This document shows, piece by piece, positions 4,978 through 32,443 of a stretch of DNA of 64,000 bases. Position 1 is the first letter of the stretch. Every line of letters begins with the position of its first letter. This stretch comes from Candidatus Melainabacteria bacterium (GTDB lineage Bacteria; Cyanobacteriota; Vampirovibrionia; 2-02-FULL-35-15). Both the position numbers and the translations under genes were made by a program. The stretch spans positions 406,661 through 470,660 of the forward strand of contig JAHFBF010000001.1 of NCBI GenBank assembly GCA_023250195.1. The letters run 5' to 3'. A model generated the notes under the pieces. The model made no database searches. It saw only the letters and a list, made by a program, of their open reading frames with translations, and had not been told where the DNA came from.

Positions 4978-5088
4978 AATTTACAATTCACAAAGAATTT
5001 AGCCTATGGTAAATAGATTACATTTATATTTTTAATTTCACAATGGAGCAAAGGGGAACTTCAAGGGTCATCTCTGAAAAAATTAATA

Positions 5089-8604: not shown

Positions 8605-8966
8605 AATTTACATTACATAGAAATTTAATCCTATTAGGTGTTTACCATCACTTCTAAGAATTAAAACCCTGCCCACTAGGGTTATCATTAGAATCCTTAA
8701 CTAAACTTTAGTTACCACCAAACAAGTTCACATTATTTTTCTGTCTGTTTTTTATTATTTATTGTCTGGTTATCTGAACCCATGTAAAAACTTATTTTAA
8801 AATTGTGTCAATCAAATCAAATGAAGGGTAGAATATCCCTACAGGACTTGAGTTAAACTGAATTTGATACTATAGAAGGTGTAAAACTCAGCAAATCCGA
8901 TCCGGTAATTAAGTAATTGATCGAAGGAAACTCAAGTTTGTCTGGAACTATAAAAAAGGAGAAGAT

Positions 8967-9689
8967 ATGAAAAAGATAATTGCATTTGCACTGGCGTTGA
9001 TCTTGTTTGCACCAGTTGCATTAGCTGAAGAAAGCAGTTTTGAAAATTTGGTTTTAGATATTATTAAAAAAAATCCACAAGTTGTTAAAGAAGCTCTGGA
9101 AAAATATGAAAAAGAAGCTTCTGGCAAAAAACAGGAAGATGAATTTAATAAATTGTTTGAAGATACTGTAAAAGTTGAAATTGGTGATTCTCCTATAAGA
9201 GGAGATAAAAAAGCAGAATATACAATAATTGCTTTTTCAGATTTCCAATGCCCATTTTGCAAACGTGGTGATGACACAATTAAAGAGCTTATGAAAAAAT
9301 ATGACAAAAAAGTTAACTATGTTTTTAAAAATCTTCCTTTAGGTTTTCACCCTGAAGCAAAAAATGCAGCAAAAGCAACATGGGCAGCAGGCAAACAAGG
9401 GAAGTTTTACGAATATCACGATAAGTTATTCGAAAACCAAGGTAAACTTGCTGAGGATCTTTATGTTCAAATAGCAAAAGACTTAGGATTAAATCTTGAT
9501 AGATTCAACAAAGACAGGGCAAGTGAAGATGCTGAAAAATCAATTCAGGCAGACTCAAAACAAGCACAGGATATCGGTATTCAAGGAACCCCGGGATTTG
9601 TCTTGAACGGTGTTAAAATTCTTGGTGCCTATCCAATTGATCATTTTGAAAAAATTATTTCTCACTTTGAAACTACAGCAAAGAAGTAA
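8967..9689 (+). CDS. DsbA-like thioredoxin-fold thiol:disulfide oxidoreductase, secreted
   Basis: RBS AAGGAG 7 nt upstream; signal peptide (MKKIIAFALALILFAPVALA); CxxC active-site motif in FSDFQCPFCKRG; size typical of DsbA family. Confidence 0.75.
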   Translation: MKKIIAFALALILFAPVALAEESSFENLVLDIIKKNPQVVKEALEKYEKEASGKKQEDEFNKLFEDTVKVEIGDSPIRGDKKAEYTIIAFSDFQCPFCKRGDDTIKELMKKYDKKVNYVFKNLPLGFHPEAKNAAKATWAAGKQGKFYEYHDKLFENQGKLAEDLYVQIAKDLGLNLDRFNKDRASEDAEKSIQADSKQAQDIGIQGTPGFVLNGVKILGAYPIDHFEKIISHFETTAKK

Positions 9690-9713
9690 AGAACAAATTT
9701 ATGTAGACACATT

Positions 9714-9760
9714 AACGTTGGAGTTTTTCATAAAAAGCTCCAGCGTTATTATTTTTAAAT
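9714..9760 (+). terminator. hairpin plus T-tract downstream of DsbA-like gene
   Basis: AACGTTGGAGTTTTTCATAAAAAGCTCCAGCGTT imperfect inverted repeat followed by ATTATTTTTAAAT. Confidence 0.5.
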
Positions 9761-9840
9761 CCTGATAATAAAATAAATATATACCTCTTTAAAGAGAGTA
9801 TATAATGTAGAAGTTAGTTTAAAAACCAAGGAGAACGTAT

Positions 9841-10242
9841 ATGAAAAAGAGTTTTAACAAAAGAGCAATTATGTCAGCATTAGCAATTACAGTCGGTGCT
9901 GCCGCCAGCACTTCTGCAGCTGATTTCAGTCTAAAAGAAGTTAATAGCCAGTCCTTACTTATTGCACATGACGGAGAAGCCAAGTGTGGTGAAGGTAAAT
10001 GCGGTGAAAAGAAAGAAACCACTACCAAAGCAAAGGCTGCTGAAGCCAAATGCGGTGAAGGTAAATGTGGTGAAAAAAAAGAAACCACTACCAAAGCAAA
10101 GGCTGCTGAAGCCAAATGCGGTGAAGGTAAATGTGGCAGCAAAAAAGAGAGAAAAACAAAAAAAGAAGCTACTAAAAAAGCAAAAAGTGCTGAAGCCAAA
10201 TGCGGTGAAGGTAAATGCGGCGAAGGCAAAACAAAGAAATAA
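9841..10242 (+). CDS. secreted Cys-Gly repeat protein, candidate HvfA/bufferin-like RiPP metallophore precursor
   Basis: RBS AAGGAG; Sec-type signal peptide (MKKSFNKRAIMSALAITVGAAASTSAA); four tandem copies of EAKCGEGKCGE(KKETTTKAKAA); the core matches EAKCGEGQCG at the end of the small ORF upstream of the MNIO gene at 45292..45444. Confidence 0.6.
   Translation: MKKSFNKRAIMSALAITVGAAASTSAADFSLKEVNSQSLLIAHDGEAKCGEGKCGEKKETTTKAKAAEAKCGEGKCGEKKETTTKAKAAEAKCGEGKCGSKKERKTKKEATKKAKSAEAKCGEGKCGEGKTKK
9978..10230 (+). repeat. about 66-bp tandem coding repeats (4 units) within 9841..10242
   Basis: Units AGCCAA(G/A)TG(T/C)GGTGAAGGTAAATG(C/T)GG... repeated head-to-tail; the opposite-strand ORF 9819..10229 is an artefact of this repeat. 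Confidence 0.85.
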
Positions 10243-10287
10243 AAGCTAAAACCTGCAGTTTATCAAAAGGAGAAATAATCTAATCCA

Positions 10288-10656
10288 ATGGCAGATATCT
10301 TAATTTATATTGTCATTGGGTTAGTTGCAGGAATATTAAGTGGTTTAATTGGAATTGGTGGTGGGATTATAATTATTCCTGCTCTGGTTTTATTAGTGGG
10401 TCTCTCTCAACACGAAGCCCAGGGAACCACATTGGCAATGATGATTCCACCAATTGGAATCTTTGCTGCATGGACATATTATAAAAGTGGTTATGTAAAC
10501 CTGCCAATTGCAATTTTTTTATGTGTTGGGTTTTTATTCGGGGGATTGATTGGAGCAAAGATAGCCACAAGCGCCTCCTCAATAGTTTTACAAAAAGTAT
10601 TTGGCACAGCATTACTTTTAGTCGCTTTGAAAATGGTTTTTTTTAGTAAAATTTAA
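10288..10656 (+). CDS. short TauE/SafE-like (DUF81) membrane protein
   Basis: RBS AAGGAG; four predicted TM segments; N-terminal GxxxGxxSGxxGIGGGxxxxPAL motif typical of the TauE/SafE family. Confidence 0.55.
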   Translation: MADILIYIVIGLVAGILSGLIGIGGGIIIIPALVLLVGLSQHEAQGTTLAMMIPPIGIFAAWTYYKSGYVNLPIAIFLCVGFLFGGLIGAKIATSASSIVLQKVFGTALLLVALKMVFFSKI

Positions 10657-10707
10657 ACCTATTGTATAATTGAGCTTGTGATTTTTACATAAAGGAGATA
10701 GAACAAA

Positions 10708-11178
10708 ATGATTAAGAACTTTCTAATTTTAAATTTTTTAGTAATATCTTTAGTTTTAACAGGCATTTTGACTTCAAATGCAACAGCAGAAATTAAAAAA
10801 GAGGTTAAAAAAATGCAAAAGACAGATGAAATAACTACACCCAGTGGACTAAAGTATATAGATAAAGTTGTTGGAACCGGTAAATCACCAACTAAAGGAC
10901 AAACAGTAACAGTACATTACACAGGATGGCTTAATAACAATGGAGAAAAAGGGAAGCAATTTGACAGTTCTGTAGATCACGGACAACCCTTCCAATTTAC
11001 AATCGGCGTTGGCCAGGTAATAAAAGGTTGGGATGAAGGTGTAAGCACAATGAAAATAGGTGGAGAAAGAGAATTAATTATCCCTTCATTGCTTGCATAT
11101 GGAGAACGAGGAGCTGGCGGTGATATTCCTCCAAATGCAACTTTAATTTTTAACGTTAAGCTTTTAGGGGTGAAATAA
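10708..11178 (+). CDS. FKBP-type peptidyl-prolyl cis-trans isomerase, secreted
   Basis: RBS AAGGAG; signal peptide; canonical FKBP core VTVHYTGWLNNNGEKGKQFDSS...PFQFTIGVGQVIKGWDEGVSTMKIGGERELIIPSLLAYGERGAGGDIPPNATLIFNVKLL. Confidence 0.9.
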   Translation: MIKNFLILNFLVISLVLTGILTSNATAEIKKEVKKMQKTDEITTPSGLKYIDKVVGTGKSPTKGQTVTVHYTGWLNNNGEKGKQFDSSVDHGQPFQFTIGVGQVIKGWDEGVSTMKIGGERELIIPSLLAYGERGAGGDIPPNATLIFNVKLLGVK

Positions 11179-11360
11179 ATCGATTAAGGACATCTTTACC
11201 AGGATTAATTTTAGTATTACGCCTAGTTTTTTGTGTATTGATAACATTTATCCTGCACTTTACTTATAATTTCATTAGGGATTAATTAGAAACCCTGCTT
11301 ATTTATAAGCGTCAGTCTATTTAGAAATAACTAAAAAATATTTTTTATGAGGTGATAAAT

Positions 11361-12335
11361 ATGAGATTCGTAAATTCTTTACTAGCAATAATTTTAATCG
11401 GTCAGTTAGCTTGTTTTTTACCAGCTTCTGCAAGGCCAGGCGAAGTCATTGGCAGCGTGTTAAAAAAATATGACTTAGAAGGACAAAAACCTACTACACA
11501 GGGAGATTATGTTTTATATAAAGTCACAAGCAAATTTGTTTCACAACCCACATTGTTTTTTAAAGTAGGCGCAAATGGAATTGTACTTGAAGAGAATTTC
11601 CTTTTTGACAAAAACACTGTTCACGAAAAAGATGTTCAACGATCAAAAAACGATTCACTTCCTACAGTCAGTATTCCACATGCTTTTTATTTAGTAGGCG
11701 ATTTTTCACAATTGCCAAGAGAACAATTCAATACAAAATCCAAAGCAATTGGAGCTGTAGCTGCTCCGTTTGGTGCAGCAGTTGGTACTATTACAGGAGC
11801 TGGAAAAGGTTTAGTTGAAGGTACAAAAATTGGAGTGCAGACTGCAAATTCAGCAAGCAGAGCATTAGGTGGTGATATTTCAGGAAAAGCAGGAGCCTGG
11901 GCTTCATCTGCTACAGCAGTAGCAACCGGTGCAGTTACCGGTCTTTTTGCAGGTTTTACTGGTGGAGCTGTTGAAGGTTCTGTCCGTGGCGCTAGAGTTG
12001 CAGTTGAAGGAATAGCCGGTGCAGACAGGCAAATTACCGGAGTTACATCTGCTACTTCTAACTACGTAGTTATTGGTGGAAGAATTGGAAAAGAACTAAC
12101 CCCTGAAGAGCAAAAGTCACTTTTAGAAGAGTTGTCCAAACTGGAACAAAGTAGACTTGCCGGACTAAATCCAGAAGACTTAAATAAGGATTTAGCTATC
12201 AATAAACCTGATGAAAACTCCGAAGACCTGAATAAATTAAAAGATTTTGATTCTGCAAAGGATAAAGGCTTTGACAGTGATTCAAACTATCTCTCAGAAG
12301 ATGCAGCAAATAAAAACGTTGCCGGAATGTGGTAG
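11361..12335 (+). CDS. hypothetical secreted Gly/Ala-rich protein
   Basis: ATG at 11361 preceded by GAGGTGA RBS (the ORF-track start at 11352 is GTG); signal peptide; Gly/Ala/Thr-rich central region; no recognisable catalytic motif. Confidence 0.5.
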   Translation: MRFVNSLLAIILIGQLACFLPASARPGEVIGSVLKKYDLEGQKPTTQGDYVLYKVTSKFVSQPTLFFKVGANGIVLEENFLFDKNTVHEKDVQRSKNDSLPTVSIPHAFYLVGDFSQLPREQFNTKSKAIGAVAAPFGAAVGTITGAGKGLVEGTKIGVQTANSASRALGGDISGKAGAWASSATAVATGAVTGLFAGFTGGAVEGSVRGARVAVEGIAGADRQITGVTSATSNYVVIGGRIGKELTPEEQKSLLEELSKLEQSRLAGLNPEDLNKDLAINKPDENSEDLNKLKDFDSAKDKGFDSDSNYLSEDAANKNVAGMW

Positions 12336-12397: not shown

Positions 12398-13120
12398 ATG
12401 AGAAGGATATTAATAGCTTTAGTATTACTAACAGTTATTCAAATACCTGCACTTGCTTTGAGGAATTTAAATGAAAACTACGAGCTTGTGTTAAACGTAG
12501 CTGCTAAAAAACTCGTTCTTTATACTAATGGAGAAGCCACAAAAGAATATCCCGTAGGAGTTGGCGCATCGCTAACACCAACACCACTTGGTGTTTTTAA
12601 AGTCGTAAGAAGAATTTATAACCCAGCCTGGGTAAATCCTTACAGACAGTCAAAAGTAATAGCACCAGGTGAAAAAAATCCAATTGGTCAACACTGGCTT
12701 GGATTTGCAATGAATAAAAAGACCCAGGAGTATGGATTTCATGCCACAAGCGACTTAAGTTCAATTGGAAGAGCAAGCACACATGGTTGTATAAGATTAC
12801 ATCCTGACGATATGAAAGAACTTTTTAATCTTGTAATGGTTGGTACAACAGTTCACGTAATTTATAATCCAATTGAAGTTAAAGAGTTCCAGAATAAACT
12901 TTTTGTAAGAGCATATCCAGATATTTATGGCTATATGACAGAAGAAGAATATTTAAAGTTTGCAAAAAATCAATTAAGCGGTGCAAATCTTGTAAAAGAA
13001 GAAAACCTTTATAAAGCAATTGCAAGCAAGGATGCAAAAGATTATTTTATTGGTTGGACTGGTGCTGATGTACTAAATGAGCAGGAAACAGGACCAACTG
13101 AAAAAGGGAAGTTACAATGA
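12398..13120 (+). CDS. L,D-transpeptidase (YkuD domain)
   Basis: RBS AAGGAG; signal peptide; catalytic His/Cys motif GFHATSDLSSIGRASTHGCIRLHPDD. Confidence 0.85.
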   Translation: MRRILIALVLLTVIQIPALALRNLNENYELVLNVAAKKLVLYTNGEATKEYPVGVGASLTPTPLGVFKVVRRIYNPAWVNPYRQSKVIAPGEKNPIGQHWLGFAMNKKTQEYGFHATSDLSSIGRASTHGCIRLHPDDMKELFNLVMVGTTVHVIYNPIEVKEFQNKLFVRAYPDIYGYMTEEEYLKFAKNQLSGANLVKEENLYKAIASKDAKDYFIGWTGADVLNEQETGPTEKGKLQ

Positions 13121-14557
13121 CGTGGAAAGACTAACTTTCCCTTCAAACAAATTCTGTCCGCTTTTTAACATCTTTTCAACAAATTCCTTACTTCTTCCTT
13201 CGCTGTAAATTCTTAGTAATGGCTCCGTCCCAGAAGCTCTAAAAAGCAGCCAGCTATCATCTTCAAAAACCAGTTTAGCTCCGTCAAGAGCTTGCAGCTC
13301 TTTTACTTTTGCATTGTTAACTTCTTTAGGAGGAGCTAATTTAATTTTTTCTACAAAATCAATTCCAATTTGACTGCTTAGAATATGAAGGTCAACTCGA
13401 TCATAATAAAAAGCTCCAAACTCATCATGTATTTTTTTCACAAGCTGGCTTGGCTTTAATCCAAACGAATTAACTGCTTCAAGTAAAAGTAGTGCATTAA
13501 ATATACCGTCTCTCTCGGGTATAAAATGCAGCTTTGAACCAATACCATTAGCTTCTTCCCCACCAATTAAAATATCTTCCTTTATCATTAAATCTGCTAT
13601 GTGTTTAAACCCAATTGGCACCTCATAAACTTTAAATCCATATTTTTGAGCCATTTTTTTCACAAGGACACTCTGTGAAAAAGTAACTACTACACCACCG
13701 GAAAGTTTTTTCTTTTCAACCAGGTAATAAAGCAAAATTGCCAGTAATTTATGTGTATTTAAATATTCGCCATTTTCATCCACTGCTCCTACACGATCAG
13801 CATCACCATCAGTTGCTAAGCCCATTAAAGCCCTGCTTTTAAGAACTTCATCTGAAAGAGGTAAAAGCTGCGGCATCATAGGCTCAGGATTAACACCGCC
13901 AAAATTAACGTCAATATCTCCTCTAATTGTTTTTACCTTAATTTTCCCATTTTTCAAAAATGATTCTATATAATCACCACCTGTGCCATGCATAGAATCT
14001 ACAATTACAGTTTCATTTATATTTTTTAGCTTATCTAGATCAATTGTCTTTTTTATAAAGCCAGAATAATCCTTGGAAGGATCTATAGTTGAGGCAGGTT
14101 TAAAACCTGCCTTTACATCTACCTCAACAGATATATTACTTAATCTTTTCTCTATAAGATCAGTATAACTTTTTGATGCTGAACAACCATCTGGAAGTTT
14201 AATTTTAAAACCAGAAAAATTGGGGGGATTATGACTTGCAGTAATTACTATTCCAGAAACAGCATTTTGTTTTTTAACATCAAAAGAGACCATTGGAGTA
14301 GGAACATCTTTGTTATAAAGACTCACATTCAATCCCTTTTCAGAAAAAATCAAGGCAGCACGTTCAGCAAATTCCCTGCCAAGGAATCTTCTGTCATAAC
14401 CAATAAAAACAAGATTATTTAATTTTTTATTCTTATCTAAATCTTCTAAAAACTGATCTGCACATACATTGGATACAAGTTCTACATTTTCAAATGTAAA
14501 ATCCTCTGCTATTACCCCTCGCCACCCATCAGTGCCAAATTTAATCCCTTTTACCAT
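13112..14557 (-). CDS. phosphomannomutase/phosphoglucomutase (alpha-D-phosphohexomutase family)
   Basis: N-terminal GTDGWRG; active-site phosphoserine loop TASHNPPNFSGFK; metal-binding DGDADR; GGEEANG sugar-binding loop. Confidence 0.85.
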   Translation of the reverse strand: MVKGIKFGTDGWRGVIAEDFTFENVELVSNVCADQFLEDLDKNKKLNNLVFIGYDRRFLGREFAERAALIFSEKGLNVSLYNKDVPTPMVSFDVKKQNAVSGIVITASHNPPNFSGFKIKLPDGCSASKSYTDLIEKRLSNISVEVDVKAGFKPASTIDPSKDYSGFIKKTIDLDKLKNINETVIVDSMHGTGGDYIESFLKNGKIKVKTIRGDIDVNFGGVNPEPMMPQLLPLSDEVLKSRALMGLATDGDADRVGAVDENGEYLNTHKLLAILLYYLVEKKKLSGGVVVTFSQSVLVKKMAQKYGFKVYEVPIGFKHIADLMIKEDILIGGEEANGIGSKLHFIPERDGIFNALLLLEAVNSFGLKPSQLVKKIHDEFGAFYYDRVDLHILSSQIGIDFVEKIKLAPPKEVNNAKVKELQALDGAKLVFEDDSWLLFRASGTEPLLRIYSEGRSKEFVEKMLKSGQNLFEGKVSLSTSL

Positions 14558-21411: not shown

Positions 21412-22731
21412 TTAAAGAAATTTCTTTTTTATGTATTCAAAGTGTGAGTAAGTAAGAAAGAAAAGTAGTTCAATTACAAAAAGTAGCTGATAAAAATATC
21501 TTGATTCAGGCTGGTAGGGAAATGAAACAATAATTACAGAAAGGGGAATTGAAATTAAAAATAAGACCTTACTAATAGGTATAATTTTTTTCTTAAGCGG
21601 GGAATATAGCAGCAAGCTAAAACAGGACATAAACACCATTAACCACTTTGAAATATCTATTAATGGATGGAAATATCTGGCACTTGAAAATCCAGGGAAT
21701 AAGTTTCCAAGAAAGAGTTCCTTTAAATTTAAAACCCGCTCTTTAAGCCAATGAGGATTTTTTTTCATACATTCCCACCCTAAGTCATAAAAATACTTTT
21801 GATCATTTATTGGATGATTTGTTTTAAATGTGGGCCATTCCTTGTGCTTCCAGTTCAGCGGTGGACCAAGCGAAAAATTATGTTTTTTATATGATGAAGA
21901 TAGTCCACGGTATTTACACTGGGCAAGAAAAAAATTTGCTCCTGTACTGTTATGCAGACCGGATACATTTCCTTTTGAAATATAAAATATCTGGGAACTG
22001 GCAATAAAGATGACTAAAAAGAAACCAAGAGAAAAAATCACGCTTTTTACAAGATGACTAATTCCAGACTTCTTTCCGGAAAGTAAAAGATAAAACAAGA
22101 AAGACAGGAAAATTGGAGCTAAGCTGGGCTTTAATGCAACTGTAAATCCAAACACAATGCCACTAAAGAATATTCTCGGGTTTTTATTATTAGAACTGAA
22201 AAGCAAATAAACTGAAAAAATAAAAACAGGGATAGCAATATTTTCTGTAAGTATAAATGCGTTTAAATATATCAATGGATAGCTAAATGCATAAAACAAA
22301 GTAGCAAGCATGGGAATAGGTGATTTATTAATTAGATCTTTAGCAATAAAATAGAAAAACACTATAGAAATAGAAGATAAAAAAATATGAAAAGTTAACA
22401 CACTTTCCAGCAAATGTTTATATAAACCAATAAAAGCAATAATCTTAAAAAGGAATGAAAGATATATTTTAAAAAAAACAGGCCATGCTGCCCAGTGAAA
22501 CATTGAAAAAATATTACCTTCATACATTGCAAGCGCTCTATTCCAATACCCACTCATATCACTTACAAGGTAATGTTTATAATCAGTGAAATAAAAAACA
22601 TAAACAATTCTTGTTATGAATGAAGTAACTACTATTAATGCTAAGTAGTAATAATCTGTGGGCAGTTTCTTTAATCTATCCAGCAAATCATTTTTGTAAG
22701 TTTCTAATTGGGTCATTTGAATCTTAGTCAC
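21412..22731 (-). CDS. polytopic membrane protein, possible GT-C-fold glycosyltransferase (ArnT/PMT-like)
   Basis: 439 aa, about 11 predicted TM helices with loops, resembling glycosyltransferase family 39/83-type topology; no decisive motif read. Confidence 0.4.
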   Translation of the reverse strand: MTKIQMTQLETYKNDLLDRLKKLPTDYYYLALIVVTSFITRIVYVFYFTDYKHYLVSDMSGYWNRALAMYEGNIFSMFHWAAWPVFFKIYLSFLFKIIAFIGLYKHLLESVLTFHIFLSSISIVFFYFIAKDLINKSPIPMLATLFYAFSYPLIYLNAFILTENIAIPVFIFSVYLLFSSNNKNPRIFFSGIVFGFTVALKPSLAPIFLSFLFYLLLSGKKSGISHLVKSVIFSLGFFLVIFIASSQIFYISKGNVSGLHNSTGANFFLAQCKYRGLSSSYKKHNFSLGPPLNWKHKEWPTFKTNHPINDQKYFYDLGWECMKKNPHWLKERVLNLKELFLGNLFPGFSSARYFHPLIDISKWLMVFMSCFSLLLYSPLKKKIIPISKVLFLISIPLSVIIVSFPYQPESRYFYQLLFVIELLFFLTYSHFEYIKKKFL

Positions 22732-22874
22732 CAGTTTTGGTTTCTTTTAGCTCCTAAGTATATATTTCATCTAGATACCTGTAAAGCCAAAAAGAAAAGT
22801 TGGGTTTTGTATTGAACGCTAAAAAAAATAGCTCAATTTCTTGAGCTATTTAATTAGTGTAATTTACGGAAGCT

Positions 22875-24785
22875 TTATTTTGTTCTTGCTCTTCTATCTC
22901 TAGTTAATGCAAGATCTTTAGATAATATAGTTCTTTCCGTTGCAAGAACTACTACTGAATTTCCCAAATCTATCATTGAACCTGATAGGGTAAATTTAAC
23001 TGTAATAACCCCGTTTTTATTTACCGTTACCTGTTCATCTCCTTGACTTATGCCGCTTGGGAATACAGTAGCAACAATATCATTGGTGATACTGTTAGCA
23101 GTTTTGTTGTGCAGTCCTTTCCTTGCAGCAACTAAAGAACGACCTCTTAAGGTTATAGTAGCTTTGTTGCCATGATGTACATTCAAAGACAATCTTCTTA
23201 TTACAGTAGGGCTTACAAGAGGATTAAAGTTAATTATCTCAATAATTCCACTTAGTGAGAGTCCATTACTTAAATTAAATGAAAATACTGCATCGCCTGT
23301 ACTGACTGCATTCCCATCTGGTAAAAGCAGAGTAAGAATGTATTTGTTAGGTTCATTAGAAATACTCATTATTTCATACTGAAGATCATTGAATACATTT
23401 CCATTACTGGATGAAAGGCTTAAAGAGAGTATTTCTGTATCTATTAAGGGCAATGAAGACCTAATTTCAAAAGATGGGTTAGAACCAGGATAAGCAGTTC
23501 CAACTTTCCCAATAAACTCATCTGGAATTAATGGAAGTTCAACTGCATTTGGTAGTTTTGGAGTTCCTGTAATATCGATATCATATCCTCTTCCTGCTTC
23601 AAAGCCACCGGAGGAAGAACTAGAAGAGGAACTACTAGAAGAAGAGCCGGAAAATTGGTCTGTTCCTAAATTCCCTGAAGATGAAGTTCCTGGTACACAT
23701 TCCGGGAGATTCGAACAAATTTCTGGATTAAATTCACAGCAGCCAAATATACAGCAGTTGTTTCCGCACATTGTCCATTGACAGTCTGGAACGTTAGATA
23801 TTCCTCCTCCTCCTACAGGTACACAAACTGGGGCAGGATTGTTACAGAGTAGTGCTTCTTGATGACGAATAACTGTTCGAGTAGGTAAATTGTCTCCTAC
23901 TGTACAACAGGCAGGTGTATTCTCTGAACAAGATGGTGAACCTAAAGAAGGGCAAGCAGGAGTAGAACCAGTAGGACATGTTACTGCTCCATCTACACAA
24001 CTTATACCACCTGAAGAAGAACCTCCTGATGATGTAGAACTTGAAGTTGTTGATGATGTTGAGCTTGTTGAACCTGATGTTGAACTTGAAGTGCTTGATG
24101 TTGAGCTTGAAGTGCTTGATGTTGAGCTTGAAGTGCTTGATGTTGAGCTTGTTGATGATGATGTGCTAGAAGAACCATGATGATCATCGTCGTCATCATC
24201 ATGACCGCCTGTTGATGATGTACTACTTGATGTTGAGCTTGTTGATGATGATGTGCTAGAAGAACCATGATCATCATCGTCATCATCATGACCGCCTGTT
24301 GATGATGTACTGCTTGATGTTGAACTTGAAGTGCTTGATGTTGAGCTTGAAGTACTTGATGTTGATGAGTTAGATCCTGAAGTCGATGAGTTGGATCCTG
24401 ATGTTGATGAACTAGAACTTGATGCAGGATCACACTTAACCTTGTCATCACACATTGACATAGAATCACAACAATTTGGTTCTCCATCTATGCAAGATAA
24501 AGTATCCATACCACTACATGATGCTACTTCTCCACTAGTACAAAAAACATTCCCATTGGAACAAAATGCAGTTTCTTTATCTTTCTTTGTCTTTATTGAA
24601 TGTGAAGTTCGTGATATAGAAGTGTAATTTCTATTTCTACCATTTGAATATGCTTGTGCTGCAGAATAATCTTTTGTCTTGAATAGAGCCAGTGTTGGTA
24701 AATTAAGAATTAATATTAAAGTAAGACTAACTAAAAATTTAAAGGCCTTTAATTTGATGTTTTTATTTGATTCTTGATTTTGCAT
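22875..24785 (-). CDS. secreted mucin-like Ser/Thr-rich, Cys-rich repeat protein
   Basis: Start taken at the Met preceded by AAGGA (signal/anchor KAFKFLVSLTLILILNLPTLALF); long (SST/SSS)n tracts, repeated GGHDDDDDDHGSSSTSSS units, Cys-rich blocks at both ends. Confidence 0.7.
   Translation of the reverse strand: MQNQESNKNIKLKAFKFLVSLTLILILNLPTLALFKTKDYSAAQAYSNGRNRNYTSISRTSHSIKTKKDKETAFCSNGNVFCTSGEVASCSGMDTLSCIDGEPNCCDSMSMCDDKVKCDPASSSSSSTSGSNSSTSGSNSSTSSTSSSTSSTSSSTSSSTSSTGGHDDDDDDHGSSSTSSSTSSTSSSTSSTGGHDDDDDDHHGSSSTSSSTSSTSSTSSSTSSTSSSTSSTSSSTSGSTSSTSSTTSSSTSSGGSSSGGISCVDGAVTCPTGSTPACPSLGSPSCSENTPACCTVGDNLPTRTVIRHQEALLCNNPAPVCVPVGGGGISNVPDCQWTMCGNNCCIFGCCEFNPEICSNLPECVPGTSSSGNLGTDQFSGSSSSSSSSSSSSGGFEAGRGYDIDITGTPKLPNAVELPLIPDEFIGKVGTAYPGSNPSFEIRSSLPLIDTEILSLSLSSSNGNVFNDLQYEIMSISNEPNKYILTLLLPDGNAVSTGDAVFSFNLSNGLSLSGIIEIINFNPLVSPTVIRRLSLNVHHGNKATITLRGRSLVAARKGLHNKTANSITNDIVATVFPSGISQGDEQVTVNKNGVITVKFTLSGSMIDLGNSVVVLATERTILSKDLALTRDRRARTK
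24001..24420 (-). repeat. tandem coding repeats (Ser-tract and HD6H units)
   Basis: Repeated GATGTTGAGCTTGAAGTGCTT and CATGATCATCGTCGTCATCATCATGACCGCC blocks; the opposite-strand ORFs 23890..24180, 24002..24487 and 24331..24627 are artefacts. Confidence 0.8.
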
Positions 24786-24950
24786 TTTAATATCCTTAAT
24801 TTCCCTTGAAACTTCTAAAACTACTAGAAGTAAAATCATATGACACAGTTAATACAAAGTCAATAAATCCTAAAAGTTAATTTTAGATCTTAAGCATTAA
24901 TCTTAAACTCTTTATGTTTAGCTTTAGATATATCTATATAAGATTAAAAA

Positions 24951-24980
24951 TTTAGGGTGCACTGTTACATGCACCCTAAA
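24951..24980 (-). terminator. rho-independent terminator downstream of 25016..27964
   Basis: 11-bp stem TTTAGGGTGCA/TGCACCCTAAA with 8-nt loop, followed on the transcript by a U-run; near-identical copy at 28132..28157. Confidence 0.7.
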
Positions 24981-25015: not shown

Positions 25016-27964
25016 CTACTGCCCTGCAGGGAAGTCACAAATTACACGGAAGCCACGAGTACTCCCTGTAGCTGTAGTTTGATTTCTAAAGTCTGCTGTA
25101 ATAGGCGATGTAGCATCACTGGTTGAAGTATAATTTCCTCCACGAGTTATTGCATATTGAGCATCAGTACTATCCGTAAACAGTTTACCGCTATTCTTAC
25201 CACCATTTAAGTCAGCAGTAGCTCCAGATTGTGTTGGAAGACCTGATCCTTCAAAGTCTATGTCTACAGCAGCAGCACCACCTGCAATATCCTGAAAATT
25301 AAAGACACTGTTGTTTGTTGTAAATGGCAGTACTATTCCAGCTCCTGGATAGCCAGAATCAACTATAAAATCTGAACCACCAGACATAGAAGAATTTGTA
25401 ATCGTAAGGTCTCCCCATTCTTCTACATTACCAATCAAGTCATATACCTGCTTATCACCATCAAATGCACTATTTGAGTTAGTTACATCATCAGCTATTG
25501 CACTGGATGCAAATGTAGTACCATCAGTATTCTTAGTAGCTGAACCATCCAAAATATGTCCCCAGCTTTTAAAGCCAGTACCAGTTAAACATCTATCTCC
25601 AGTACCACTTTGATTTGGATCATCAGCACATTGGAATGAAGCACTATTTCTTAGATCTCTGTTTCCATCCCTGGTATTTCCTCTTTCATTCCAACCATTT
25701 GTAGCGGTTGCACCAAAGATGCTTTTTTGTTTTGCAAATCTGCCCAGTATATAAAGTGCTGTCCATTCCTTATTTCCAATAAGTTTACACGATCCTAAAG
25801 ATGAAATTTGGGCACTGGAAGCAGATGCGTTTGCTTTTGCAGTTGAGTGGCTTATGTTAGTCCAAGGTACTACATTTCTCTGACTGACAGGAATAGAAGA
25901 ACTGCCCTCTGCGGTAGCAGTAGCATCTGCTTTTGATGCTTCATATTTATTAATCCAGAAACCCCCAAAAACAATTCCATTAATAATAAATCTTGGTATT
26001 CTTACCATTCTTGTTGTACAAAGTGAAGATGGTGATACATCACATGAGCTTGTTGAGAAGGTCTTTTCATCTGAGTATGAATTCCAGCTAGAGGAAACTT
26101 CCTGAACTGTAGGAATATCATTTGCTCCTTGGCAGTCAGCCACTGTACATGACCCACTTACGTTTATATCTTCAGTAGCTGTATCACATGAACCATTGCC
26201 GTTTAAATCCCAGCAATTTAAACCATTAGTTCCATTGGTACCGTTAGTTCCGTTGGTTCCATTTGCTCCATTAGTCCCATTGGTTCCATTTGCTCCGTTG
26301 GTTCCATTAGTTCCATTACAGACATAATTTGTTGCTGTGACTTCACCGGAATCTAAAGTATTGTCATTATTTGAATCAAGCCCTGATTCTACTTTCTTGC
26401 CACCAGTAGAACAATTTGTTCCTGCTGATTCTGTAGTAATCTTTACCAAACTGTTTAAACCATTAGTTCCATTGGTACCGTTAGTTCCGTTGGTTCCATT
26501 TGCTCCATTAGTTCCGTTAGTTCCGTTAGTTCCATTGGTTCCATTACAGACATAATTTGTTGCTGTGACTTCACCGGAATCTAAAGTATTGTCATTATTT
26601 GAATCAAGCCCTGATTCTACTTTCTTGCCACCAGTAGAACAATTTGTTCCTGCTGATTCTGTAGTAATCTTTACCAAACTGTTTAAACCATTGGTTCCAT
26701 TGGTACCGTTAGTTCCATTGGCTCCGTTTGCTCCATTGCAGACAAAAGATGTTGAACTTACTTCACCAGAATCAAGCACACTATTTCCATTAGCATCAAG
26801 ACCAACTTCTATTTTTCTTCCACCTGTTGCACAATTTGCTCCGGCTGATTCTGTGGTTGATTTTGTAAGTGCATTATTTCCACCCATTCCATCACTACCA
26901 TTGCTTCCTGCATTTCCAGCAGTTCCAAGTGGAATAGTAAAAGTCAGGTTACAAAGAACCGGATCAAAAAACGCATCAGCCTTTGTCCCTGGTGCACCAT
27001 TATTTGCTGAGATCATTAATAATGCATTTAGATCATTACAGACACCCATACCATCCATGCCATTAATCCCATCCATTCCATCCATAATTACAACGGTAGG
27101 GATAGTTTCAGGAGACAAACTATTTGTTCCAAGGGTCTGATTATTTACAAATACTCCACCTACAATAGTTACTGTTGAGTTAAGAATCGGACTTGTAATA
27201 GTTATATCTCTAGATCCAACTGGAGCATCACTTTTCGGAGTAGCTAACACATCCAAAGTTGAATCATCTAAAGCTATAGTCTCTCTTACAGTAATATCAT
27301 TATTGCTGAATGAAACTTCTGTAAATGCATCTAATCCTTTACCTTTAATTGTAAGTTTATTTTCTACCCCGGCCTTTAGATCCCGTGTTATTGAATCAAG
27401 CCTAAACTCAGGTAGAGTAAACACAATCGTGTCAGCAGAATCATTGCCATCAACAGTAGCTCTTAAAGTATATTGGCCTGGTTTTAACCCTTTTACAAAA
27501 ATTTTGAATATTTTAAAGTCCAGGGCCTGAACTATTGAGCTTTGATTTTGAGTTTTATTTAAATTAAACGTAACTGATTGATTTTTTGTAACTATTTTAT
27601 TTTTACCTGTTTTTATTAAGTTTTGATCTTCTCTAAGCTCTGATATTCTAAATATCTTTAATCCAGTCATTAAAAGTGTGGCATTGTCAATTCCAAGACC
27701 TGTTCCCTGTGCACCAATAACTTCTACTTTTACAACCATTGCATCAGGCTTAAGTAACAGATCCAGGGATACTCTTTGATCAAGTTCTATATTATTCCTG
27801 TTATATCTGAATGCCGGCAATAAATTAGCTGATATTCTCTCTTGAGAAATTGTACTTCTGGCTTTTACTGCATAAATATTAACTGCATAAGCAGCACCGC
27901 TTTGATTCAGCAGAAGTACAGCTATTAATACAACCTTACATAGAAGACTTAACTTATTTTTCAT
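25016..27964 (-). CDS. giant secreted protein: conserved N-domain, Gly-Thr-Asn triplet tracts, Asp-rich repeat modules, C-terminal FGE-sulfatase (SUMF1)-like domain
   Basis: Signal peptide; N-terminal 330 aa nearly identical to 28187..32443; (GTN)n tracts; about 45-aa modules ...TESAGTNCSTGGKKVESGLDSNNDNTLDSGEVTATNYVCNG; C-terminal FGE-type motifs MVRIPRF...WINKYEAS, NKEWTALYILG, QVYDLIGNVEEW, TRGGNY...GFRVICD. Confidence 0.85.
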   Translation of the reverse strand: MKNKLSLLCKVVLIAVLLLNQSGAAYAVNIYAVKARSTISQERISANLLPAFRYNRNNIELDQRVSLDLLLKPDAMVVKVEVIGAQGTGLGIDNATLLMTGLKIFRISELREDQNLIKTGKNKIVTKNQSVTFNLNKTQNQSSIVQALDFKIFKIFVKGLKPGQYTLRATVDGNDSADTIVFTLPEFRLDSITRDLKAGVENKLTIKGKGLDAFTEVSFSNNDITVRETIALDDSTLDVLATPKSDAPVGSRDITITSPILNSTVTIVGGVFVNNQTLGTNSLSPETIPTVVIMDGMDGINGMDGMGVCNDLNALLMISANNGAPGTKADAFFDPVLCNLTFTIPLGTAGNAGSNGSDGMGGNNALTKSTTESAGANCATGGRKIEVGLDANGNSVLDSGEVSSTSFVCNGANGANGTNGTNGTNGLNSLVKITTESAGTNCSTGGKKVESGLDSNNDNTLDSGEVTATNYVCNGTNGTNGTNGTNGANGTNGTNGTNGTNGLNSLVKITTESAGTNCSTGGKKVESGLDSNNDNTLDSGEVTATNYVCNGTNGTNGANGTNGTNGANGTNGTNGTNGTNGLNCWDLNGNGSCDTATEDINVSGSCTVADCQGANDIPTVQEVSSSWNSYSDEKTFSTSSCDVSPSSLCTTRMVRIPRFIINGIVFGGFWINKYEASKADATATAEGSSSIPVSQRNVVPWTNISHSTAKANASASSAQISSLGSCKLIGNKEWTALYILGRFAKQKSIFGATATNGWNERGNTRDGNRDLRNSASFQCADDPNQSGTGDRCLTGTGFKSWGHILDGSATKNTDGTTFASSAIADDVTNSNSAFDGDKQVYDLIGNVEEWGDLTITNSSMSGGSDFIVDSGYPGAGIVLPFTTNNSVFNFQDIAGGAAAVDIDFEGSGLPTQSGATADLNGGKNSGKLFTDSTDAQYAITRGGNYTSTSDATSPITADFRNQTTATGSTRGFRVICDFPAGQ
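26221..26317 (-). repeat. hexanucleotide (GTTCCR/TTGGTN) tract encoding (Gly-Thr-Asn)n
   Basis: CCATTAGTTCCATTGGTACCGTTAGTTCCGTTGGTTCC...; further tracts at 26458..26548 and 26688..26740; the opposite strand reads PLVPLVP (artefact ORFs 26337..26555, 26565..27140). Confidence 0.85.
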
Positions 27965-28131: not shown

Positions 28132-28157
28132 TAGGGTGCACTGTTACATGCACCCTA
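28132..28157 (-). terminator. rho-independent terminator downstream of 28187..32443
   Basis: TAGGGTGCA-CTGTTACA-TGCACCCTA hairpin, duplicate of 24951..24980. Confidence 0.7.
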
Positions 28158-28186: not shown

Positions 28187-31100
28187 TTAGAAGTCACAGA
28201 TTACACGGAATCCACGACGCTCGTCAGTAGTAGTAGTCACATCATTACCATCAATTATAAGTGGTGAAGGAGCACTGGCACCATCATTACAAGCACCACC
28301 ACGAGTTATACCGTATTGTGCATCTGTTGTAGTTGTAGAAAGAGTTCCTGAATTCTTCCCGCCATTTGTATCATTCAAGCCACCATTTGCAGTAGCAGGA
28401 AGTCCAAGTCCACTAAAAGTAGATGATGTTGATATATCTATAGAGTTAAAGATCGCTCCATCTGTCGTAAATGGAAGCACTGATCCTGCTCCTGTATAGC
28501 CAGTATCAACTACAAAGTCTGAGCCAGACATGGTAGAAGAATTTGTAAAAGTATAGTCAATCCATTCTTTTACATTTCCAACAAGATCATAGACCTGTTT
28601 ATCACCATCCAAAGTATCAGCACCTGATCCACCATTGTCATCTTTAACAGCATCTGCTGTACTACCAAGTGAAGTACCTGTCGCATTTATAGTAGCTGAA
28701 CCATCTAAAAGATGTCCCCAGCTCTTATAACCTGTTCCAGTTAAGCAGACATCGCCAGTACCACTTTGATCTGGATCATCTTCACATACAGATGAACCAC
28801 TATCTCTGCCATCTCTGTTTCCATTTCTGGTATTCCCTCTTTCATTCCAACCGTTTGTAGCAGTTGAACCAAAGAGTCCTGTACTTTTTGCAACTTTACC
28901 AAGAATATAAAGAGCAGTCCACTCTTTCATTCCTATAAGTCTGCATGAACCAATACCAGTAATTTGTCTATTTAAACTAGATGCATTTGTCTTTGCAGTA
29001 GCCTGACTTATGTTTGTCCATGGCTCTACTCTACGTTGGCTTACAGGTACACTAGAAGTTCCTTGATCTGTTGCTGTAGCATTTGCTCTAGAAGCTTCAT
29101 ACTTGTCTATCCAGAAACCACCATACTCTACACCTTTATAAGTAAACTTTGGTATTTTTACCATTCTAGTCATACTGCTCATGTCATTTGTAGTGTAGTT
29201 TACTTCATCAGATAAAGTATTCCAGTTATTCACCAAACCGATAATTGCTGCTTCCTGGCAATCATCAGCTGTATATAAACCGTCATTATTTACATCTTCA
29301 GCTGCATCATTTACACCATCTTCATCTACATCCCAGCAGTTAATTCCATTAGTTCCATTTGAACCATTGGTTCCGTTTGTACCATTAATTCCATTACAGA
29401 CATAGCTGGTAGAAGCGATTTCACCACCAGTTAGCATATTGTCATTATTTGCATCAATACCGGCTTCCACTTTCTGACCGCCAGCTGTACAGTTTGCACC
29501 TGAACCTTCAGATGTTACAACAACTAAGCTAGTTGAGCCATTGGTTCCGTTAGTACCATTAGTTCCATCAGTTCCAGCACAATCAGCAACGTCTACTACA
29601 GTATCACCATTTAGATCTTCAGTTGCTACATCACCTACTCCATTATTATTTAAATCCCAGCAGGCTTGTCCGTTGGTTCCATTAGTACCGTTAGTTCCAT
29701 TAGTTCCGTTGGTTCCGTTAGTACCATTGGTTCCGTTTGTACCATTAGTTCCATCAGTTCCAGCACAATCAGCAACGTCTACTACAGTATCACCATTTAG
29801 ATCTTCAGTTGCTACATCACCTACTCCATTATTATTTAAATCCCAGCAGGCTTGTCCATTGGTTCCGTTGGTTCCGTTAGTTCCATTGGTTCCGTTAGTT
29901 CCGTTAGTTCCGTTGGTTCCGTTAGTTCCATTAGTTCCGTTGGTTCCGTTTGTACCATTGGCTCCATTACAGACATAGTTTGTAGAAGTAATTTCACCAC
30001 CAGCTAAAGAACCATTATTATTTGTATCCAGTCCAGATTCTACTTTTTTCCCACCATTAGCACAATTTGCACCAGCTGATTCTGTAGTAACCTTTACCAA
30101 GCTGTTCAAACCGTTGGTTCCATTTGTACCATTAGTTCCGTTGGTTCCGTTTGTACCATTGGCTCCATTGCAGACATAGTTTGTAGAAGTAATTTCACCA
30201 CCAGCTAAAGAACCATTGCCATTTGTATCTATTCCAGATTCTACTTTCTTTCCACCATTAGCACAATTTGCACCGGCTGATTCTGTAGTAATCTTTACCA
30301 AACTGTTCAAGCCATTGGTTCCGTTAGTTCCGTTAGTACCATTAGTTCCATTTGTACCGTTGCATACATAAGTAGTTGATGTAATTTCTCCTCCACTTAA
30401 AGAACCATTGCCATTTGTATCAACCCCACTCTGTATCTTCTTTCCACCATTAGCACAGTTTCCACCTGGGTTTTCATTTGAGGATGTTACAAGTGTTTGT
30501 AAACCATTGCAAACATATGATGTAGCATCAACTTCTCCCGAGTCAAGAGTACTATCACCATCATCATCTACTCCTACCTGAATTTTTCTTCCACCGTTTG
30601 CACAGTTTCCACCTGGGTTTTCATTTGAGGATGTAATTAAACTGTTTGATCCATTACATGCATAAGTCGTAGAGTCTATTTCACCTGCATCAAGTGTGTT
30701 ATCTCCATCATCATCTACTCCTACGCGAATCTTTCTACCACCGCTTGGACAGTTTGCTCCAGATGGTTCGCTTGAAGATGTAATTAAACTGTTTGATCCG
30801 TTACATGCATAGGTTGTAGAGTCTATTTCACCTGCATCAAGTGTGTTATCTCCATCATCATCTACTCCTACGCGAATCTTTCTACCACCGCTTGGACAGT
30901 TTGCTCCAGATGGTTCGCTTGAAGATGTAATTAAACTGTTTGATCCGTTACATGCATAAGTCGTAGACTCAACTTCTCCAAGATCAAGAACATTGTCTCC
31001 GTCATCATCTACTCCTGCCTGAAATTTTCTACCACCACTTGGACAGTTTGCTCCGGATGGTTCGCTTGAGGATGTAATTAAACTGTTTGATCCATTACAT

Positions 31101-32443
31101 GCATAGGTCGTTGATGTAATTTCTCCACTATCAAGAACACCACTTCCATCAGTGTCAGTACCAACTTCAAACTTTTGCCCACCGCTTGGACAGTTTGCTC
31201 CGGATGGTTCGCTTGATGTATTAGTTAAACTATTTTCACCTGCAGGAATACCAAGAACTAAAGTACACAAAATAGAATTAAAAGTAGTAGTAGCTGCTAA
31301 ACCTGGCGCAAGGGTAACATTTGAAATTACAAGTGTTGCATTCATATCATCACAAACACCCATTCCATCAGATCCATTACTTCCATTAATTCCATTAAAA
31401 CCTACAGGAATGCTGAAAGTAAGGTTACAAAGAACTGGATCAAAAAACACATCAGACATTGAACCTGGGATTCCATTGTTTGTAGTAATCATTAATAAAG
31501 CATTCATATCATCACAAACACCCATTCCATCCACGCCATTCATACCATCCATAATTACAACAGATGGATTAATGTTTGCATTATCAGGAGATAAACCATT
31601 TGTTCCAAGGGTCGGATTATTTACAAGTACTCCATTTACTATAGTGACCGTATTGCCAGTAAGCGGACTTGTAATAGTTACATCTCTATAACCATTTGGG
31701 GCATTACTTGTTGAAGTTGCCAATACCTTTAAAGTAGAATCATCTAAAGCTATGGTATCTCTTACAGTAATATCACCATTGCTGAATGAAACTGCTGTTA
31801 ATGCATCCAATCCTTTTCCTAGAAGTGTAAGTGTAGTTTCAACACCGGGATTTATAACTGATGGGGTTACTGCATCCAGTCTAAAGTTTGGCCTTGTAAA
31901 CACAATCGTGTCAGTAGAATCATTATCATCAATAGTAGCTCTTACAGTATATTGGCCAGGAAGACGTCCTTTTACAAATACTTTGAATATTTTAAAGTCC
32001 AGAGCCTGAACTATTAAGCTTTGATTTTGAGTTTTATTTAAATTAAAAGTAACTGATTGATTTTTTGTAACTATTTTGTTCTTGCCTGTTTTTGTCAACT
32101 TTTGATCTTCTCTAAGCTCTGATGTTCTAAATATCTTTAATCCACCCATTAAAAGTGTGGAATTATCAATTCCAAGGCCTGTTCCCTGTGCACCAATAAC
32201 TTCTACTCTTACAACCATTGCATCAGGCTTAAGTAACAGATCCAGGGGTATTCTTTGATCAAGTTCTATATTATTCCTGTCATATCTGAATGCCGGCAAT
32301 AAATTAGCTGATACTCTCTCTTGAGAGATTGTAGTTTTGGTTTTAACTGCATAAATATTAACTGCATAAGCAGCACCGGTTTGATTCAGCAGAAGTGCAG
32401 CTATTAACACAACCCTACATAGAAAGCTTAATTTATTTTTCAT
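28187..32443 (-). CDS. giant secreted protein, paralog of 25016..27964 (expanded repeat modules, C-terminal FGE-sulfatase-like domain)
   Basis: 1418 aa; same signal peptide and N-domain; at least 7 tandem 45-aa modules SLITSSSEPSGANCPSGGRKxxVGVDDDGDNTLDAGEIDSTTYACNGSN (three nearly identical); (GTN)n tracts up to 13 triplets; duplicated CWDLNNNGVGDVATEDLNGDTVVDVADC units; C-terminal YDLVGNVKEW / GFRVICDF. Confidence 0.85.
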   Translation of the reverse strand: MKNKLSFLCRVVLIAALLLNQTGAAYAVNIYAVKTKTTISQERVSANLLPAFRYDRNNIELDQRIPLDLLLKPDAMVVRVEVIGAQGTGLGIDNSTLLMGGLKIFRTSELREDQKLTKTGKNKIVTKNQSVTFNLNKTQNQSLIVQALDFKIFKVFVKGRLPGQYTVRATIDDNDSTDTIVFTRPNFRLDAVTPSVINPGVETTLTLLGKGLDALTAVSFSNGDITVRDTIALDDSTLKVLATSTSNAPNGYRDVTITSPLTGNTVTIVNGVLVNNPTLGTNGLSPDNANINPSVVIMDGMNGVDGMGVCDDMNALLMITTNNGIPGSMSDVFFDPVLCNLTFSIPVGFNGINGSNGSDGMGVCDDMNATLVISNVTLAPGLAATTTFNSILCTLVLGIPAGENSLTNTSSEPSGANCPSGGQKFEVGTDTDGSGVLDSGEITSTTYACNGSNSLITSSSEPSGANCPSGGRKFQAGVDDDGDNVLDLGEVESTTYACNGSNSLITSSSEPSGANCPSGGRKIRVGVDDDGDNTLDAGEIDSTTYACNGSNSLITSSSEPSGANCPSGGRKIRVGVDDDGDNTLDAGEIDSTTYACNGSNSLITSSNENPGGNCANGGRKIQVGVDDDGDSTLDSGEVDATSYVCNGLQTLVTSSNENPGGNCANGGKKIQSGVDTNGNGSLSGGEITSTTYVCNGTNGTNGTNGTNGTNGLNSLVKITTESAGANCANGGKKVESGIDTNGNGSLAGGEITSTNYVCNGANGTNGTNGTNGTNGTNGLNSLVKVTTESAGANCANGGKKVESGLDTNNNGSLAGGEITSTNYVCNGANGTNGTNGTNGTNGTNGTNGTNGTNGTNGTNGTNGQACWDLNNNGVGDVATEDLNGDTVVDVADCAGTDGTNGTNGTNGTNGTNGTNGTNGTNGTNGQACWDLNNNGVGDVATEDLNGDTVVDVADCAGTDGTNGTNGTNGSTSLVVVTSEGSGANCTAGGQKVEAGIDANNDNMLTGGEIASTSYVCNGINGTNGTNGSNGTNGINCWDVDEDGVNDAAEDVNNDGLYTADDCQEAAIIGLVNNWNTLSDEVNYTTNDMSSMTRMVKIPKFTYKGVEYGGFWIDKYEASRANATATDQGTSSVPVSQRRVEPWTNISQATAKTNASSLNRQITGIGSCRLIGMKEWTALYILGKVAKSTGLFGSTATNGWNERGNTRNGNRDGRDSGSSVCEDDPDQSGTGDVCLTGTGYKSWGHLLDGSATINATGTSLGSTADAVKDDNGGSGADTLDGDKQVYDLVGNVKEWIDYTFTNSSTMSGSDFVVDTGYTGAGSVLPFTTDGAIFNSIDISTSSTFSGLGLPATANGGLNDTNGGKNSGTLSTTTTDAQYGITRGGACNDGASAPSPLIIDGNDVTTTTDERRGFRVICDF
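29670..29970 (-). repeat. hexanucleotide tracts encoding (Gly-Thr-Asn)n plus duplicated about 190-bp unit
   Basis: GTTGGTTCCATTAGTACCGTTAGTTCC... tracts at about 29670..29760 and 29858..29970 flanking duplicated ...CAGCACAATCAGCAACGTCTACTACAGTATCACC... units; the opposite-strand ORF 29541..29978 is an artefact. Confidence 0.85.
30470..31210 (-). repeat. tandem about 135-bp coding repeats (45-aa Asp-rich modules)
   Basis: Repeated ...TCCACCTGGGTTTTCATTTGAGGATGT... and ...GGACAGTTTGCTCC(A/G)GATGGTTCGCTTGA(A/G)GATGTAATTAAACTGTTTGATCC... blocks; boundaries approximate. Confidence 0.75.

Follow-up and report, generated by a model that had tools for sequence, protein, structure and literature searches.

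Does a membrane glycosyltransferase encoded directly beside an exported, serine- and threonine-rich protein modify that protein, or do the two genes stand together by chance? The question is raised by a locus of Candidatus Melainabacteria (contig JAHFBF010000001.1 of assembly GCA_023250195.1), of which we analysed a 64,000-nucleotide stretch, here called the window. On its minus strand, 143 bp apart, lie two open reading frames (ORFs), at 21412–22731 and 22875–24785, the first for a polytopic membrane protein and the second for what we call the Ser-rich protein. An earlier sequence-only reading, which had both ORFs correctly placed, suggested that they may be a protein O-glycosylation pair. 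Our analysis assigns the membrane protein to the GT-C glycosyltransferases and its neighbour to an apparent small family of modular exported proteins, and it shows that the linkage between the two is not conserved. The reading that we favour, with a probability of roughly 0.5, is an orphan GT-C enzyme whose acceptor is an envelope glycan or glycolipid and which lies beside an exported Ser/Thr-rich surface protein by chance.

The membrane protein and its GT-C subfamily

The mechanically called ORF of the membrane protein, 439 residues long, opens with a GTG at 22731. Alignments with homologs begin at Met6, which is the ATG at 22716, and the 434-residue form that starts there stands verbatim in the public protein collection (NCBI, ENA), from which the 439-residue form is absent. 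On these two grounds we set the gene at 21412–22716, with the ATG as its likely start.

A sequence search returned 11 homologs, one of them a fragment of 100% identity and the rest at 39–66% identity, the closest coming from metagenome-assembled genomes (MAGs) labelled Candidatus Melainabacteria. The window protein itself has no match in Pfam, tried up to an E-value of 10, or in NCBIfam, and an alignment profile gave no match to PDB sequences at E≤10, where fold comparison alone produced matches. PF13231 (PMT_2) is recognised in 7 of the 11 aligned family members (best E 1e-10), NF047440, the LA_3751/LA_3752 family of putative glycosyltransferases, in six (best E 4.1e-8), DUF2079 in two, and PF02366, the PMT N-terminal domain, in one (E 0.057); PMT_4TMC is not among the Pfam matches listed for the 11 homologs. 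The window protein would therefore belong to PMT_2 by transitive homology only. In a library-wide profile search, 157 representatives of the subfamily fell within E≤1e-30 and 430 within E≤1e-10.

The protein contains, within a polytopic membrane fold, the transmembrane core that is conserved in GT-C enzymes. Foldseek gave STT3 proteins as its top hits, and the figures listed for GT-C enzymes are 23.0 for Pmt4, 21.1 for ALG12, 20.1 for AglB, 19.8 for ALG3, 19.6 for GPI-MT-I, 18.3 for ALG9, 18.1 for AftA, 17.1 for ArnT, 13.6 for PglB and 9.7 for EmbA. An acidic residue in the first extracytoplasmic loop, a mark of the superfamily, is supplied by Asp58, which sits in an SDMxGYW motif immediately after the first transmembrane (TM) segment and is Asp in 48 of 61 relatives and Glu in two; we infer the outward orientation of this loop from the Lys/Arg-rich N-terminus. 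Position 163, in an S/T-E-N motif, is Glu or Asp in 59 of the 61, Arg411 of an ExRY motif is kept in 57, and Cys272 and Cys321 are kept in 52 and 51, respectively. The outer domain is small (residues ~252–348, about 95 residues), and neither a MIR, TPR or WWDYG element nor a large C-terminal acceptor-binding domain was found in the protein.

Given the PMT_2 and NF047440 matches among the homologs, the fold comparison and the residue conservation, the GT-C assignment is sound, and the protein appears to be a compact GT-C enzyme whose subfamily is uncharacterised and has PMT_2 and the Leptospira LA_3751/LA_3752 family as relatives. The sequence-only reading had likened it to PMT/ArnT-type enzymes. 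The GT-C part of that claim holds, but membership of GT39/PMT or GT83/ArnT did not emerge, and the search against family profiles that had been proposed as a check succeeded through the homologs and not with the protein itself.

As in solved GT-C enzymes (e.g. PMC12331936, PMC6801728), the protein would transfer a sugar from a polyprenyl-phosphate-sugar donor at the outer face of the cytoplasmic membrane, with Asp58 as the catalytic or acceptor-activating residue and with Glu163 and Arg411 holding the donor phosphate or a metal; these roles are assigned by analogy. Cys272 and Cys321 may form a disulfide within the outer domain. The acceptor would most likely be a cell-envelope glycan or glycolipid, not the neighbouring protein specifically.

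Comparison with the GT39 PMTs (yeast Pmt1, Pmt2 and Pmt4, and MtPMT) shows both likeness and distance. The PMTs have D-E in their loop-1 motif, where the window enzyme has D-M. Sequence identity is 11%, the window enzyme is much shorter, and it has no MIR domain and neither of the two Pfam matches, PF02366 and PMT_4TMC, by which we judged GT39 membership. Three of its features it shares with the PMTs, as a comparison with MtPMT (Rv1002c; PMC12331936) shows: its first outer loop has a conserved Asp, like the catalytic D74; an outer loop that lies between late TM helices contains a beta-hairpin, reminiscent of the EL4 C-terminal hairpin; and its last outer loop has a conserved Arg, reminiscent of the Rx2Y motif. 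Bacterial PMTs favour Pro-rich targets (PMC12331936), unlike the candidate tract in the window, which is pure Ser/Thr.

Enzyme and substrate, or neighbours by chance

We compared the gene neighbourhoods of both families by tblastn. The comparison took in seven further loci that carry the C-terminal domain of the Ser-rich protein and 17 GT-C loci that were fetched, which represent about 13 distinct places. The window is the sole locus that holds both families: none of the seven other loci with the domain (0/7) has a GT-C homolog, and no other fetched GT-C locus has the domain. At L010, whose GT-C protein is 64% identical and the closest with its upstream flank in view, there is no Ser-rich gene within 985 bp upstream. 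When GT-C loci were scanned for any Ser/Thr-rich ORF, a neighbour of this kind appeared in a single locus, L004, out of about ten with a readable upstream flank. The conserved adjacency expected of an enzyme and its substrate is therefore lacking in the fetched loci. In addition, the 143-bp spacer contains a terminator-like hairpin and a promoter-like site, and a further pair of such signals lies upstream of the Ser-rich gene (Table 1); by these signals, the two genes look like separate transcription units and not like a co-transcribed operon.

The neighbourhoods of GT-C relatives suggest another kind of acceptor. In L013 and L014, the GT-C homolog follows genes for UbiA, FAD_binding_4 (DprE1-like) and SDR (DprE2-like) proteins, a second GT-C gene adjoins, and the neighbours include polytopic proteins of 751 and 762 residues with 11–14 TM-like segments. 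L002 has GT2, UbiA, GMC oxidoreductase and SDR genes around its GT-C homolog; in L015, proteins with 12 and 7 TM segments flank it. At the C-terminus, longer relatives bear carbohydrate-binding modules of the PA14 and NPCBM types. Together, these contexts and fusions suggest glycan acceptors. A GLF-like FAD enzyme, of which the window has no homolog, adjoins the GT-C gene in L001 and L004; since DprE1/DprE2/UbiA-like or GLF-like enzymes are found with relatives, the transferred sugar could be a furanose (arabinofuranose or galactofuranose).

As an observation in its own right, positions 4092–12001 (+) of L013, from an uncultured metagenome bacterium, form an apparent operon of UbiA, FAD_binding_4, SDR, the 751-residue protein with 11 TM segments and two tandem GT-C paralogs, which looks like a decaprenyl-phospho-arabinose-type donor pathway.

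Known enzymes with glycan or lipid acceptors offer partial parallels. Like the mycobacterial AftA, AftB, AftD and Emb proteins, relatives of the window enzyme occur in clusters of several GT-C genes with a decaprenyl-phospho-arabinose-like donor pathway, and some carry carbohydrate-binding modules, as Emb proteins do. Unlike those arabinan enzymes, the window gene stands alone, with neither donor genes nor partner GT-Cs, and we know of no arabinan described in Candidatus Melainabacteria. The PMT_2 matches of seven homologs and the compact build, as is found with lipid or glycan acceptors, recall the PMT_2/ArnT-like enzymes (we take PF13231 to be linked to CAZy GT83); the differences are that the window protein lacks a Pfam match and that no genes for 4-amino-4-deoxy-L-arabinose or lipid A were found nearby. 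The likeness to NF047440 runs through six homologs and not through the window protein, and the family is itself one of 'putative' glycosyltransferases.

Several observations weigh against an orphan enzyme of glycan assembly. The ORFs of the window that were scanned, 150 residues or longer, include no envelope-glycan or donor-synthesis genes, and the sole sugar-related gene in the 64 kb, of the PGM/PMM type, lies at 13112–14557, 7 kb from the GT-C gene; the case for a glycan acceptor hence rests on relatives at ~40% identity. The three same-strand genes upstream of the GT-C gene all encode exported repeat proteins, with Ser/Thr-rich or G-T-N repeats, the signals called as terminators and promoters are no more than pattern matches, and the single best structural match is Pmt4, a protein O-mannosyltransferase. 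A further such point comes from L004, a Candidatus Melainabacteria MAG whose GT-C protein is 44% identical. Its gene is the last of an operon-like row in which two exported (SST)n or T/S-rich proteins and a GLF-like FAD enzyme precede it, with spacers of 33 bp and 4 bp and with no terminator-like site between genes. By analogy, this row would have the expected look of a protein O-glycosylation system, and because of it we keep protein O-glycosylation at about 25–40%.

In each of the two tandem proteins of L004 (6535–7380 and 7555–8568, both +), long tracts of (SST)n or (TTTAMATSS)n are combined with an N-terminus that weakly resembles Flp pilins (E 0.002) and a C-terminal domain with a weak likeness to Hint (E 0.006). 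Their family is not that of the Ser-rich protein of the window.

The broadest form of the idea, in which this compact and undescribed GT-C subfamily acts as a protein O-glycosyltransferase on (SST)n stalks, with the window pair and L004 as two instances, we hold to be doubtful. By rough estimates, which were not computed, chance adjacency in the window has a probability of ~0.04 (one gene of each kind among ~55), chance proximity in L004 one of ~0.3, and both adjacencies combined give ~p=0.07, a value that is suggestive and not conclusive.

A dedicated pair within the window, in which the GT-C enzyme attaches O-glycans to the Ser/Thr tracts of its exported neighbour, with a polyprenyl-phosphate sugar as donor, as bacterial PMTs or TfpW act on protein targets, appears rather unlikely. 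The low estimate for chance adjacency on the same strand, the Pmt4 fold match and the operon-like link of the same subfamily to unrelated (SST)n proteins in L004 argue for it, and the two partners would meet, as the substrate is exported and GT-C enzymes work on the outer face of the membrane; but the adjacency to the Ser-rich domain recurs in none of the other loci and any Ser/Thr-rich neighbour in one GT-C locus of about ten only, the combined estimate is only ~0.07, the spacer signals separate the genes, and the enzyme has an outer domain of only ~95 residues and no recognisable peptide-binding domain.

A precedent is TfpW, which we take to be a GT-C member that modifies its pilin at Ser/Thr. 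This oligosaccharyltransferase of P. aeruginosa Pa5196/PA7 places D-arabinofuranose on the type IV pilin, from a donor made by PsPA7_6246, DprE1 and DprE2 (bioRxiv 10.1101/2020.04.19.049825). The UbiA/DprE1/DprE2-like genes that flank the same subfamily in L013 and the weakly pilin-like Ser/Thr-rich neighbours in L004 resemble this system. The window differs, as no pilin or D-arabinofuranose pathway genes occur among the ORFs scanned there, donor genes being found in L013 and L002, and the large periplasmic C-terminal domain by which TfpW is described is missing from the window enzyme. In sum, the claim of a protein O-glycosylation pair finds no support beyond the adjacency in the window, and this is unconserved, accompanied by signals of separate units and set among relatives that point to glycan assembly; only L004 lends it partial support.

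Quite unlikely is a general protein O-glycosyltransferase for many exported Ser/Thr-rich or (G-T-N)n proteins, among them the two giant DUF7151 proteins encoded upstream. Such an enzyme would not need an adjacent substrate, which would explain the lack of conserved adjacency, and the different Ser/Thr-rich family in L004 fits recognition of composition and not of fold. Four consecutive same-strand genes, two DUF7151/collagen-like ones, the Ser-rich gene and the GT-C gene, are in its favour, but tblastn found no DUF7151 proteins in any other GT-C locus, and the PA14/NPCBM fusions and multi-GT-C donor clusters of relatives indicate glycan substrates. That the protein is an inactive GT-C-like scaffold or a transporter, similar in this to PIG-U/GAB1, the subunits of the glycosylphosphatidylinositol (GPI) transamidase that have a GT-C fold, is highly improbable in view of the putative catalytic and donor-binding set (Asp58, Glu163, Arg411) conserved across the subfamily and of the donor-synthesis genes that adjoin its relatives.

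The Ser-rich protein, a modular exported protein

The Ser-rich gene has an AAGGA 8 nt 5' of its start. Its product begins with a single hydrophobic segment, which could be a cleaved signal peptide or a signal anchor, and contains 22.6% Ser and 10.4% Thr. Runs rich in these two residues cover residues 119–263 and 373–394, about 26% of the protein, so that the description of a mucin-like secreted protein was broadly right in its essentials, export and dense Ser/Thr tracts, and overstated in its details, since (SST)n tracts do not dominate the sequence. Tandem DNA repeats of 21, 42 and 87 bp encode the Ser/Thr tract. The 87-bp duplication yields both GGHD6H(H)GSSST units; the His-Asp6-His repeat that had been reported is real, but it comprises two copies only, both from this one duplication. 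The two clusters are probable divalent-cation sites, as judged from their sequence. ORFs of 96–161 residues that run through the repeats in different frames (23890–24180 and 24331–24627 on the plus strand, 24002–24487 on the minus strand) are probably by-products of the repeats and not genes.

All 24 Cys residues lie in two blocks. The sequence-only reading had placed these at the termini; they are N-proximal and central (residues 75–118 and 263–363), and the final ~245 residues have neither Cys nor repeats. A C-x6-C-x7-C-x7-C-x6-CC module occurs twice, at 24432–24563 (residues 75–118) and at 23906–23999 (residues 263–294), and is covered by no Pfam family; indeed, Pfam and NCBIfam scans of the whole protein gave no significant match even at permissive E-values. 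The exact protein is absent from the public protein collection, and no second copy of the gene was found. An AlphaFold2 model of the C-terminal domain, built from four sequences, is all-beta, with two beta-sandwiches, at a predicted local distance difference test score (pLDDT) of 65, and Foldseek returned generic Fab-like matches only; with a model of such low confidence and matches so generic, no function can be read for this domain.

A search with the non-repetitive part of the protein retrieved three homologs, P0012–P0014 (E 1e-32 to 1e-25), and a metagenome scan five further loci of the family, L018–L022. All relatives keep the C-terminal domain of ~240 residues, with a TPKLP..LPLIPDEFIGKxGxAYPGSNPSFEI motif, and throughout the family the N- and C-terminal parts are connected by a stretch of poly-Ser/Thr. 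The N-terminal parts vary: those of P0012 and P0014 have CxDGxDNDxDG motifs and acidic/His-rich tracts, that of L019 contains an HEIGHAIGLDH motif, similar in appearance to the zinc site of a metalloprotease, together with a sub-threshold Peptidase_M10 match, and Cys blocks of similar spacing were seen by eye in P0013, P0014 and L018. Acidic or His-rich segments, which probably bind cations, are present in three of the four aligned members. Two loci of the family, L011 (3588–4217, −) and L019 (5701–6342, +), have in common an exported neighbour of ~210 residues (33% identity), for which there is no Pfam match and no counterpart in the window.

On this sequence evidence, the C-terminal tandem beta-sandwich would define a small, uncharacterised family of modular exported proteins. 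The window member would be a disulfide-rich surface protein in which the Ser/Thr stalk and the His-Asp6-His clusters connect variable N-terminal Cys modules to the conserved tandem beta-sandwich. The latter may be the constant anchoring or sorting part, and the family may consist of display proteins that combine such a constant module with a flexible Ser/Thr stalk and a variable head. The window protein has in common with mucin-like and serine-rich surface proteins that its long exported Ser/Thr tracts lie between folded modules and are encoded by imperfect tandem DNA repeats. Unlike these, it shows no LPXTG motif (NCBIfam LPXTG-adhesin matches fall far below the cut-off), the scanned window ORFs included no genes of the SecA2/GtfAB type, and its family is set apart by the novel tandem beta-sandwich and the Cys-rich modules.

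Surrounding genes and meaning of the locus

The features of the two genes and of the spacers beside them are collected in Table 1.

Table 1. Positions of features at the Ser-rich and GT-C genes (window coordinates).
Feature	Position	Strand	Details
GT-C-fold glycosyltransferase gene	21412–22716	−	434 residues from ATG 22716
Promoter-like site before GT-C gene	22757–22785	−	TTTACA-17-TATACT; consensus scan, 10/12 matches
Terminator-like hairpin	22826–22851	−	11-bp stem and T run, 24 nt past the Ser-rich stop codon
Exported modular Ser/Thr-rich protein gene	22875–24785	−	636 residues from ATG 24785
Conserved C-terminal domain	22878–23603	−	Residues 395–636; two predicted Ig-like beta-sandwich domains and a basic tail
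Ser-rich linker	23604–23669	−	Residues 373–394; 12-Ser run
Cys-rich region 2	23697–23999	−	Residues 263–363; 16 Cys, the first six with module 1 spacing
(SST)n mucin-like tract	23997–24431	−	Residues 119–263; two HD6H acidic clusters within
87-bp tandem duplication	24134–24328		2.2 copies, 93% matches
HD6H clusters	24267–24290; 24177–24203	−	Residues 166–173 (HDDDDDDH); residues 195–203 (HDDDDDDHH)
Cys-rich module 1	24432–24563	−	Residues 75–118; 8 Cys, C-x6-C-x7-C-x7-C-x6-CC-x5-C-x5-C
Signal peptide or signal anchor	24651–24785	−	Residues 1–45; one hydrophobic segment; possible AQA/Y cleavage by inspection
Promoter-like site before Ser-rich gene	24835–24863	−	TTGACT-17-TATGAT
Terminator-like hairpin ending upstream DUF7151 gene	24951–24980	−	Isolates the Ser-rich gene at its 5' side

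The two DUF7151 genes upstream (25016–27964 and 28187–32443, both −) encode paralogous giant exported proteins, 59% identical over the N-terminal ~630 residues, with 3 and 9 DUF7151 repeats, respectively, and with (G-T-N)n tracts of collagen-like type. A hairpin with the core TAGGGTGCATGTAACAGTGCACCCTA comes after each of the genes, at 24951–24980 and 28132–28157, and the two hairpins are near-identical. A domain shared between these proteins and the Ser-rich protein was considered and rejected, as BLASTP gave low-complexity matches only.

Elsewhere in the window, a DUF2063 gene adjoins an MbnB/TglH/ChrH (DUF692) gene (43726–45347, −; E 1e-95); by their families, the two are predicted to be two enzymes of a modification system for the precursor of a ribosomally synthesised and post-translationally modified peptide (RiPP). 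Genes for a DsbA-like protein (8967–9689, +), a thioredoxin (42395–42883, −) and a DsbD-TM protein (43015–43722, +) are consistent with oxidative folding of Cys-rich exported proteins such as the Ser-rich protein.

For annotation, a hypothetical membrane protein can now confidently be called a GT-C glycosyltransferase, of a subfamily that is uncharacterised. Beside it, a small family of modular exported proteins is newly recognised, in which a poly-Ser/Thr stalk stands between an N-terminal part that varies and a tandem beta-sandwich that is conserved. The locus is also a cautionary case, in which adjacency by itself does not make an enzyme–substrate pair. A literature search on O-glycosylation in Melainabacteria returned nothing relevant. 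If the GT-C enzyme does glycosylate Ser/Thr stalks, it would represent a new family of bacterial protein O-glycosylation in a poorly studied lineage and would provide, at 434 residues, a minimal GT-C enzyme for structural and engineering work; to our knowledge, no system of this kind has been proposed before for the non-photosynthetic lineage that is sister to Cyanobacteria.

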